Below are positions 24,401 to 27,400 of a stretch of DNA of 64,000 bases, one piece after another. The position numbers were made by a program. The DNA lies in assembly GCF_003991155.1 (NCBI RefSeq), contig NZ_CP031293.1; one strand, given 5' to 3'. Every line of letters begins with the position of its first letter. Position 1 is the first letter of the stretch. The DNA comes from Escherichia coli (GTDB lineage: Bacteria > Pseudomonadota > Gammaproteobacteria > Enterobacterales > Enterobacteriaceae).

Positions 24401-27400
24401 GCACTTACTACCGGCGCTCGCCTGCGTAATGCTCGCGAACAACTAGGACTTAGTCAGCAGGCCGTTGCTGAGCGACTTTGCCTGAAGGTTTCCACGGTAC
24501 GCGACATTGAAGAAGATAAGGCACCCGCCGATCTTGCTTCAACATTCCTGCGCGGATATATCCGCTCTTATGCGCGTCTGGTACATATTCCAGAAGAAGA
24601 ACTGCTGCCAGGGCTGGAAAAGCAGGCTCCACTACGGGCTGCAAAAGTTGCGCCGATGCAGAGTTTTTCCCTCGGTAAACGCCGTAAAAAACGCGACGGC
24701 TGGCTGATGACCTTCACCTGGCTGGTGTTGTTTGTGGTTATCGGCCTGAGCGGTGCCTGGTGGTGGCAAGACCACAAAGCTCAGCAGGAAGAGATCACCA
24801 CTATGGCCGATCAATCTTCTGCGGAACTGAATAATAATCAAAGCCAGAGTGTACCGTTAGATACGTCGACAACCACAGATCAGGCTATGGCGACCACGCC
24901 GACATCACCTGTGGATACCACCGCAACTAACACGCAAACACCTGCCGCGACGACGGCTCCATCGCCAACCGTCGATTCACAACAGAATGCGGTTGTTCCA
25001 CCTTCGCAGGCAAATGTTGATACCGCTGCGACTCCGGCACCAGCGGCAACAACAACACCAGATGGCGCTGCGCTGTTGCCAACCGATCAGGCTGGCGTGA
25101 CCACGCCGGCGGTTGACCCGAATGCGCTGGTGATGAACTTTACTGCCGATTGCTGGCTGGAAGTCACCGATGCTACCGGTAAAAAACTGTTTAGCGGTAT
25201 GCAGCGTAAAGACGGTAATTTGAACTTAACCGGCCAGGCACCGTACAAACTGAAAATTGGTGCGCCAGCCGCAGTACAGATCCAGTATCAAGGGAAACCT
25301 GTCGATCTGAGTCGTTTTATCAGAACTAACCAGGTTGCGCGTCTGACCCTCAATGCCGAACAATCACCGGCGCAGTAACAGACGGGTAACGCGGGAGATT
25401 TTTCATGCATAACCAGGCTCCAATTCAACGTAGAAAATCAACACGTATTTACGTTGGGAATGTGCCGATTGGCGATGGTGCTCCCATCGCCGTACAGTCC
25501 ATGACCAATACGCGCACGACAGACGTCGAAGCAACGGTCAATCAAATCAAGGCGCTGGAACGTGTTGGCGCTGATATCGTCCGTGTCTCCGTACCGACGA
25601 TGGACGCGGCAGAAGCGTTCAAACTCATCAAACAGCAGGTTAACGTGCCGCTGGTGGCTGACATCCACTTCGACTATCGCATTGCGCTGAAAGTAGCGGA
25701 ATACGGCGTCGATTGTCTGCGTATTAACCCTGGCAATATCGGTAATGAAGAGCGTATTCGCATGGTGGTTGACTGTGCGCGCGATAAAAACATTCCGATC
25801 CGTATTGGCGTTAACGCCGGATCGCTGGAAAAAGATCTGCAAGAAAAGTATGGCGAACCGACGCCGCAGGCGTTGCTGGAATCCGCCATGCGTCATGTTG
25901 ATCATCTCGATCGCCTGAACTTCGATCAGTTCAAAGTCAGCGTGAAAGCGTCAGACGTCTTCCTCGCTGTTGAGTCTTATCGTTTGCTGGCAAAACAGAT
26001 CGATCAGCCGCTGCATCTGGGGATCACCGAAGCCGGTGGTGCGCGCAGCGGGGCAGTAAAATCCGCCATTGGTTTAGGTCTGCTGCTGTCTGAAGGCATC
26101 GGCGACACGCTGCGCGTATCGCTGGCGGCCGATCCGGTCGAAGAGATCAAAGTCGGTTTCGATATTTTGAAATCGCTGCGTATCCGTTCGCGCGGGATCA
26201 ACTTCATCGCCTGCCCGACCTGTTCGCGTCAGGAATTTGATGTTATCGGTACGGTTAACGCGCTGGAGCAACGCCTGGAAGATATCATCACTCCGATGGA
26301 CGTTTCGATTATCGGCTGTGTGGTGAATGGCCCAGGTGAGGCGCTGGTTTCTACACTCGGCGTCACCGGCGGCAACAAGAAAAGCGGCCTCTATGAAGAC
26401 GGCGTGCGCAAAGACCGTCTGGACAACAACGATATGATCGACCAGCTGGAAGCACGCATTCGTGCGAAAGCCAGTCAGCTGGACGAAGCGCGTCGAATTG
26501 ACGTTCAGCAGGTTGAAAAATAATAACGTGATGGGAAGCACCTCGCTTCCCGTGTATGATTGAACCCGCATGGCTCCCGAAACATTGAGGGAAGCGTTGA
26601 GGGTTCATTTTTATATTCAGAAAGAGAATAAACGTGTCGAAGAAAATTCAGTCTGTACGCGGTATGAATGATTATTTGCCAGTGGAAACCGCTGTATGGC
26701 AACGCGTTGAGCGCATAATTAAAAGCGTCGTTGAGTCTTACGGATACAGTGAGATTCGCACACCTATTCTTGAGCAAACGCCACTGTTTAAGCGCGCTAT
26801 CGGTGAAGTTACTGATGTTGTTGAAAAGGAGATGTACACCTTCAACGATCGTGAGCGTGATGCGAAAGAGGTTGTTTCGTTAACTCTTCGCCCTGAAGGT
26901 ACAGCAGGATGTGTACGCGCCGGCATCGAGCATGGCCTTCTGTACAATCAGGAACAGCGTTTGTGGTATATGGGACCGATGTTCCGCCACGAGCGCCCGC
27001 AAAAAGGTCGTTATCGTCAGTTCCACCAAATCGGTCTGGAAGTTTTCGGTCTGCAAGGTCCGGATATCGACGCTGAATTGATTATGCTCACCGCCCGCTG
27101 GTGGCGCGCGCTGGGTATCTCCGAGCACGTAACTCTTGAGCTGAACTCTATCGGTTCGCTGGAAGCACGCGCCAATTACCGCGATGCGCTGGTGGCATTC
27201 CTTGAGCAGCATAAAGAAAAGCTGGACGAAGACTGCAAACGCCGCATGTACACTAACCCGCTGCGCGTGCTGGATTCAAAAAATCCGGAAGTGCAGGCGC
27301 TTCTCAACGACGCTCCGGCATTAGGCGATTATCTGGACGAGGAATCTCGTGAGCATTTTGCCGGTCTGTGCAAACTGCTTGAGAGCGCGGGGATCGCTTA

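Follow-up and report, generated by a model that had tools for sequence, protein, structure and literature searches.

A mosaic hisS allele of Escherichia coli whose first codons very probably come from another enterobacterial lineage

Mosaic genes formed by interspecies homologous recombination have been described for penA in Neisseria and for pbp2x and pbp2b in Streptococcus pneumoniae, in all cases tied to beta-lactams. A comparable allele is reported here for hisS, the single essential gene encoding histidyl-tRNA synthetase (HisRS), in a stretch of 64,000 nucleotides from Escherichia coli (assembly GCF_003991155.1, contig NZ_CP031293.1), hereafter the window. As in the penicillin-related mosaics, a homologous block diverging by 10-30% is found in an essential chromosomal gene, with sharp junctions, an intact frame and the status of a minority allele that is spreading. 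Unlike them, the hisS patch has no known selective agent, and its core would have come from another family by way of an intermediate donor. In this line, the patch also resembles the Milkman-type interruptions of the clonal frame and the imports reported by Gubbins or ClonalFrameML, since it is a sub-kilobase replacement within a clonal frame that was later moved between lineages. Typical imports in E. coli, however, come from E. coli itself and diverge by 1-3%, whereas the hisS patch diverges by 27% overall and by 35% in its core and is bordered by unusually conserved anchors; 27-35% is a level of divergence at which recombination is normally strongly suppressed. A third related system is the horizontal transfer of aminoacyl-tRNA synthetase (aaRS) genes, such as the extra resistant copies of ileS, which like the present case involves foreign aaRS sequence working, presumably, in a new host. 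In contrast with those whole-gene transfers, only the first 135 codons of hisS are foreign, no copy was added and the locus is unchanged.

The mosaic structure of the allele was revealed by aligning positions 23634-30923 of the window to the K-12-derived genome NZ_CP062245. Not a single difference to K-12 occurs across 26541-26636, whereas codons 2-135 (26637-27038) carry 94 substitutions over 390 aligned nucleotides and a 15-nt insertion, which leaves an identity of about 73%; the other 885 nt of hisS keep only 12 substitutions (Fisher p = 5e-39 for patch against rest). Both flanks of the patch are 98.6-100% identical to K-12 and the edges are abrupt, so that in windows of 60 nt the identity falls from 1.00 to 0.50-0.73 and then returns to 0.95-1.00, while in a maximum chi-square scan the strongest change point fell at 26882, to the left of which the divergence is 35% and to the right 3.2%. 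An earlier sequence-only reading of this DNA had described a divergent N-terminus on an otherwise conserved gene and had asked for a sliding-window comparison: the divergence was borne out by the drop from at least 98.6% on the flanks, and the identity along the gene is indeed far from uniform, although the segment spans 135 codons rather than the proposed 140 or so. The five-residue insertion that it had seen was recovered in the K-12 alignment, where its placement is ambiguous by a few nucleotides and falls between the MYTF strand and the SLTLRPE strand. The remainder of the protein, which had been called essentially identical over about 290 residues, proved exactly so, as residues 136-429 (the C-terminal 294 amino acids) match K-12 and the E. 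coli HisRS structure 1KMM without exception; all of the 21 substitutions and the 5 inserted residues lie within residues 2-135, and most of the changes are conservative swaps among I, V and L. The patch brings the identity of the whole gene down to about 92%.

Base composition and synonymous sites further divide the patch. Nucleotides 1-255 of the gene have a GC content of 44.7%, with 43.5% at third codon positions (GC3), whereas the corresponding part of K-12 has 52.1% and 62.5% and the rest of the gene a GC content of 54.8%, in agreement with the AT-richness already remarked in the earlier reading. Its GTG start codon, on the other hand, does not belong to the anomaly, because K-12 hisS starts with GTG as well. 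The proportions of synonymous and nonsynonymous sites differing from K-12 (pS and pN) are 0.87, that is saturated, and 0.13 in this core, 0.44 and 0.044 in a shoulder comprising nucleotides 256-405, and 0.06 and 0 in nucleotides 406-1230 (Table 1). The patch is thus two-layered, with a core of the type found in Budviciaceae set within a shoulder that looks like generic sequence of non-Escherichia Enterobacteriaceae. The right crossover of the window allele is bounded by 27038 and about 27107. No RNA element was found by Rfam within the patch, the only match being the small RNA sroE upstream of the gene.

Table 1. Positions in the window of hisS, of the segments of the mosaic allele and of the adjacent small RNA
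Feature	Position	Strand	Description	Evidence
sroE small RNA	26523-26614	+	Lies in the ispG-hisS spacer	Rfam RF00371, 110.9 bits (gathering score 51)
hisS coding sequence	26634-27923	+	429 aa, GTG start, unbroken chimeric histidine-tRNA ligase	Open reading frame and TIGR00442
Patch core, "type B" N-terminal module (codons 2-83)	26637-26882	+	About 35% divergent from K-12, AT-richer, groups with Budviciaceae and with the module of Superficieibacter and Citrobacter ku-bf3	
15-nt (5-codon) insertion, lacking in ordinary E. coli hisS	26864-26878	+	20 residues where K-12 has 15	
Patch shoulder (codons 84-135; TXE loop, motif 2)	26883-27038	+	About 11% divergent from K-12, nearly all synonymous	
E. 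coli-type remainder of hisS	27039-27923	+	98.6% nucleotide identity to K-12, same protein	

The chimeric gene is intact and stands at its usual place. It is 100% identical to the hisS of E. coli 2016C-3878 (WP_000037894.1), and the gene order around it is the common rlmN-rodZ-ispG-hisS-yfgM-bamB-der. Across 5425 complete E. coli genomes hisS occupies a single locus per genome, in the conserved position between ispG and yfgM and with no plasmid copy. A whole-gene aaRS xenologue or an extra resistant copy was considered and rejected, given that the foreign part covers nucleotides 4-405 of the gene only and that hisS is single-copy. The protein scored 518.1 bits against the HisS equivalog TIGR00442 (cutoff 286.75) over residues 6-416 and 905 bits against 1KMM. 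Moreover, the signatures LRPEGT (TXE loop), motif 2, RGLDYY (HisA) and GGRYDGL (HisB) are invariant columns in an alignment of 21 sequences that includes it. The product would be a complete class IIa HisRS presumably doing its ordinary job, a presumption that is based on the conservation of all the catalytic signature residues, and we infer that the chimeric enzyme histidylates tRNA-His solely from the essentiality and single copy of hisS. Against the HisZ family TIGR00443 the protein reached just 162.8 bits, well under the cutoff of 271.65. This touches on the annotation of a 146-aa partial NCBI protein of E. coli (P0004), which is identical to the patch and labelled "ATP phosphoribosyltransferase regulatory subunit, partial", that is HisZ; since the full protein falls under the HisZ cutoff, the name is a mis-annotation.

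To place the allele within the species, its 427-nt patch was compared with 5426 complete E. coli genomes, and it was found in 53 of 5425 (about 1%). The distribution of identities is clearly bimodal, with 50 genomes at 99% or above, 3 at 96.5% and the remaining 5372 at 60-80% (around 76%), none falling between 80% and 96%. An assembly or chimeric-contig artefact has a practically negligible chance of explaining the patch, as it recurs identically in 49 other independently sequenced complete genomes and the exact protein is present on at least 1000 contigs of a large collection. Most carriers (41 genomes) form a main clone that is virtually the same as the window across 24 kb (15000-39000); a second, O153:H30-type group of 8 genomes has an identical patch with flanks at 98.1% identity; GF4-3 shows the junctions of the window in a far more different background; and the 3 EC42405-type genomes have a related but distinguishable allele. 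Sequence type ST457 has been published for three of the 41 main-clone genomes (MRY15-117, MRY15-131 and CREC-544), while CE-O153H30, from the second group, belongs to phylogroup F and ST12280. Another genome of the main clone, LWY24 (CP054556), was reported as ST93 in the title of its paper, which reflects either differing typing or deposit or a large identical segment common to two sequence types.

Could the divergent segment have arisen inside E. coli, through a local acceleration of its evolution or as an old polymorphism kept by balancing selection? In line with such an origin, E. coli is polymorphic for the allele, which is present in several backgrounds. However, its synonymous sites are saturated with respect to all ordinary E. 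coli alleles and its base composition is shifted; the patch is closer to a Citrobacter gene (89%), to Superficieibacter hisS and to Budviciaceae genes (77-81%) than to ordinary E. coli (only about 73-76%), the N-terminus of Salmonella is exactly of the K-12 type, and none of the species-representative genomes of other Escherichia species has the insertion motif. An origin in situ is accordingly very improbable. What these data favour, and what we regard as very probable, is that the hisS of the window is an interspecies recombinant allele of a single essential gene, in which codons 2-135 were replaced from non-Escherichia Enterobacteriaceae. The sequence-only reading had suggested that recombination brought a patch of a different enterobacterial lineage into an essential gene, and the flanks, the saturated synonymous sites, the frequency of the allele and its relatives all speak for it.

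A sub-variant of this explanation concerns the number of events, namely whether at least two imports from related donors occurred rather than a single import followed by spread and partial re-conversion. The EC42405-type allele (WP_032184882.1; L014 6001-7290, equivalent to 26634-27923 of the window) differs at 7 of about 344 core positions (2%), and its donor-type sequence runs some 90 nt further right than in the window, to about 27125, including the change A159E. Its protein was found on 105 contigs of the large collection and, like that of the window, is named "MULTISPECIES: histidine--tRNA ligase [Escherichia]". These differences are what independent imports would leave, but the left junction is common to all carriers, the junctions of the ST457-type, O153:H30-type and GF4-3 alleles are identical, and a longer original import trimmed by E. 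coli-to-E. coli recombination fits equally well. Differences of EC42405 at 26583, 26592 and 26593 were examined as possible donor DNA and rejected, for the same upstream haplotype exists in 16 E. coli genomes that do not carry the patch; since this haplotype is an ordinary one, the left junction adjoins the start codon in every carrier. The EC42405 allele may be an earlier form that was trimmed less, or else the product of a separate import, and multiple imports are overall a tentative possibility.

Relatives of the patch were sought with an 11-residue motif around the insertion and its encoding DNA in one genome for each of 100,044 species, and eight matches were obtained. Four were Budviciaceae (Budvicia aquatica, B. 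diplopodorum, Limnobaculum allomyrinae and L. eriocheiris) and four Enterobacteriaceae (Superficieibacter electus, Superficieibacter sp. 1612_C1, the metagenome-assembled genome UBA5654, named Superficieibacter sp. by NCBI, and Citrobacter amalonaticus ku-bf3). Protein searches added "Klebsiella sp. RIT-PI-d" and a few Budviciaceae-like proteins; "Erwinia sp. CGal63" (429 aa) was rejected as a carrier owing to its N-terminus of ordinary type. The five inserted residues (FNDRERD...) are missing from the ordinary HisRS of the Enterobacterales compared. The closest relative of the window patch is Citrobacter ku-bf3, with 89% nucleotide identity over nucleotides 1-405 and 96% over the first 90, and residues 1-85 of the window protein are 98% identical to this strain, 89% to Limnobaculum and 73% to K-12. 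In the core, pS is 0.36 to Citrobacter ku-bf3, compared with 0.87 to K-12, whereas in the shoulder it rises to 0.62; the shoulder shows no specific closeness to any of the sequences found, and its divergence is at the level of Enterobacteriaceae. Within the module, ratios of nonsynonymous to synonymous substitution rates (dN/dS) among type-B genes of 0.02-0.06 indicate purifying selection.

The hisS genes of the Superficieibacter species, of Citrobacter ku-bf3 and of UBA5654 are themselves mosaics, in which Budviciaceae-like sequence occupies the first 225-300 nt and the remainder is typical of the family, with the junction at the start codon; the module seems to be fixed across several Superficieibacter species. 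Over residues 1-85, the identity of these Enterobacteriaceae carriers is 89-96% with Limnobaculum but 67-73% with K-12; over residues 136-410 it is 80-82% with Limnobaculum but 89-93% with K-12. At the nucleotide level, the first 135 nt or so show the preference of the N-terminal residues (79-86% to Limnobaculum, 57-70% to K-12). Along its full length, Budviciaceae hisS has about 70% identity with the E. coli gene. The ordinary N-terminus is 86-100% conserved from Salmonella, where it equals that of K-12, to Hafnia, and K-12 keeps 86-90% identity with Pantoea, Erwinia, Mixta, Rahnella and Hafnia. Because it is so conserved, the insertion-bearing type B is taken as the derived state, and its occurrence in Enterobacteriaceae would be best explained by transfer. 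As a separate observation, residues 1-85 of HisRS in Budviciaceae (Budvicia, Limnobaculum) are about 70% identical to those of other families of Enterobacterales, while the rest of the protein stands at 80% and is not unusually diverged, which points to a possible local acceleration of change, together with the five-residue insertion, at the source of the module in Budviciaceae.

Both ends of the exchange probably lie in conserved sequence. The spacer between ispG and hisS, conserved across Enterobacteriaceae, is mostly filled by sroE, which ends 19 nt before the hisS start and in the window has one mismatch to K-12, at 26540 in a hairpin loop. Just ahead of the start codon, 38 nt are identical between E. 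coli and Citrobacter ku-bf3, and sroE plus the 19 nt that follow it are the likely left homology anchor; on the right side, the block coding for motif 2 has long runs identical between lineages. Budviciaceae, by comparison, share just AGAGAAT..ACGTG around the start codon with Enterobacteriaceae, whose carriers all keep the upstream sequence typical of the family as far as the GTG. Since the Enterobacteriaceae carriers keep this upstream sequence and Budviciaceae do not have it, the start-codon junction in E. coli is one inherited from the older mosaic of the donor, and the recent left crossover could have taken place anywhere in the conserved upstream stretch.

Altogether, the following course of events may be proposed. 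A Budviciaceae-type module would have entered several Enterobacteriaceae lineages at an earlier time, with its junction at the start codon. For this older step alone, a one-sided anchor combined with microhomology, as in homology-facilitated illegitimate recombination, is a possible route, the left side offering the shared AGAGAAT..ACGTG and the right side conserved coding sequence; for the recent step into E. coli, unlike that process, ordinary homologous recombination is enough. In that step, some member of the Enterobacteriaceae outside Escherichia would have supplied a fragment of its hisS, already mosaic because its first 250 nt or so consisted of the module with the five-residue insertion, and this fragment would have replaced the resident codons 2-135 by RecA-type homologous recombination, with the left crossover in the conserved sroE and ribosome-binding region before the GTG and the right one in the conserved motif-2 block. 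Within E. coli the allele would have been inherited vertically and also carried into a few lineages by further recombination, becoming commonest in the ST457 (phylogroup F) clone. The resulting hybrid would combine a foreign N-terminal extension, motif-1 helix, TXE loop and motif 2 with the insertion domain, motif 3 and anticodon-binding domain of E. coli. While the structure of the mosaic, its distribution, its relatives and its intactness are shown directly, we infer the mechanism of recombination, the direction of transfer and the functional equivalence of the two enzymes.

Several points weigh against this proposal. No donor at 95% identity or above was found in the searches, the best being Citrobacter ku-bf3 at 89% in the patch; as this strain is too distant and the shoulder is close to nothing found, the immediate donor is placed in an unsampled Enterobacteriaceae lineage with a type-B hisS. 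A scan of metagenomes for the specific 11-residue motif gave no match, and one with a broader motif returned a single Budviciaceae-like contig with 81% amino acid identity. The lack of a near-identical donor limits what can be claimed of the identity of the donor and leaves the mosaic nature of the allele untouched. Furthermore, the direction of the older transfer from Budviciaceae to Enterobacteriaceae is deduced by parsimony; the 2% difference in the core between the window and EC42405-type alleles could mean two imports instead of one; the neutrality of the patch is assumed; and the function of the chimeric enzyme is likewise a presumption. The AlphaFold2 model built on the 21-sequence alignment is too poor for the patch region, with a mean pLDDT of 58.7 and values below 50 for residues 37-146; it sets strands 68-71 and 82-86 around the insertion, a weak indication at such confidence. 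As to the protein searches, a 260-aa query showed no closer donor because clustering at 90% hides mosaic alleles within the ordinary E. coli cluster, and the 146-aa patch query gave only short fragments, of which the 100% matches P0001-P0003 and P0006 were rejected as donors, being frameshifted E. coli assemblies.

A more far-reaching explanation is that the type-B module is a selected, horizontally mobile cassette, captured repeatedly by Superficieibacter, Citrobacter ku-bf3 and several E. coli lineages because it changes how HisRS or the 5' end of hisS behaves, through resistance to some HisRS-directed toxin, antibiotic or phage factor, or through altered translation or regulation. At least three lineages of Enterobacteriaceae and at least four backgrounds of E. 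coli have the module with the same start-codon junction, the N-terminus in Budviciaceae has diverged to an unusual extent (to about 70%, against 86-100% for other families), the insertion sits on the catalytic core, and the successful ST457 clone is fixed for the allele, all of which could be taken as signs of selection. Yet the frequency in E. coli is just 1%, with most carriers belonging to one clone, the low dN/dS of the module and its mostly conservative I/V/L changes suggest otherwise, the common junction is accounted for by the conserved sroE and ribosome-binding sequence, and no agent aimed at this part of HisRS is known or was found in the literature. Such a cassette is therefore unlikely. 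Slightly more doubtful still is the specific version in which the Budviciaceae-type module was adaptively exchanged several times across families and genera, either shielding HisRS or the 5' end of its gene from an inhibitor, toxin or phage factor or retuning hisS expression, its fixation in the globally spreading ST457 clone being no accident. If the module did prove to be under selection, an as yet unknown agent that acts on HisRS would have to be suspected. The interspecies recombinant that we favour is, unless a phenotype is found, a clear but ordinary recombination event. Literature searches on hisS mosaicism, on ST457 together with hisS and on chimeric HisRS gave nothing relevant, so that the allele is one for which no describing paper was found, though its protein is already in RefSeq.

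How such a chimera might work is suggested by the minimal catalytic fragments, or urzymes, of E. coli HisRS, which comprise residues 10-134 and 16-134, activate histidine on their own and have an N-terminal extension that packs against the motif-2 loop (PMC3060492). The swapped block, residues 2-130 in K-12 numbering, is nearly coextensive with this unit: like the urzyme it has the N-terminal extension, motif 1 in its helix and motif 2, and it also takes in the five-residue insertion and the TXE loop; a working chimera is plausible because exchanging the whole block keeps the internal contacts of the urzyme together. In contrast with the hisS patch, the urzyme is a laboratory construct, and the older junction near codons 85-100 is not at its boundary. 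The allele nevertheless offers a natural and well-delimited chimera for testing the modularity of class II synthetases, in which the catalytic core and the tRNA-anticodon-binding half would come from lineages separated at the level of families. It also indicates that an essential translation gene of E. coli can acquire by recombination, and retain, a block diverging by 27-35%. In practice, the patch is a handy marker of the ST457 lineage and of related strains in phylogroup F and, at the same time, a trap for typing and annotation, with its low whole-gene identity and a fragment misnamed HisZ.

Other variation was observed in hisS and its neighbourhood. The hisS of GN4738 (L003), of the ordinary type A, departs from K-12 by 4-6% along a few hundred nucleotides in the middle of the gene (window 27228-27530), and EC42405 resembles the GN4738 gene further downstream, at 27528-27700, which suggests milder further recombination tracts in hisS within E. 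coli. Upstream of the locus, rodZ (+ strand) shows between 24820 and 25190 about 60 mismatches and a small indel relative to K-12, in the part coding for the Pro/Thr/Ala-rich linker of RodZ. This cluster may be another recombined or hypervariable segment, and its haplotype is common to the window and CE-O153H30 and is not the one of GF4-3 or EC42405.

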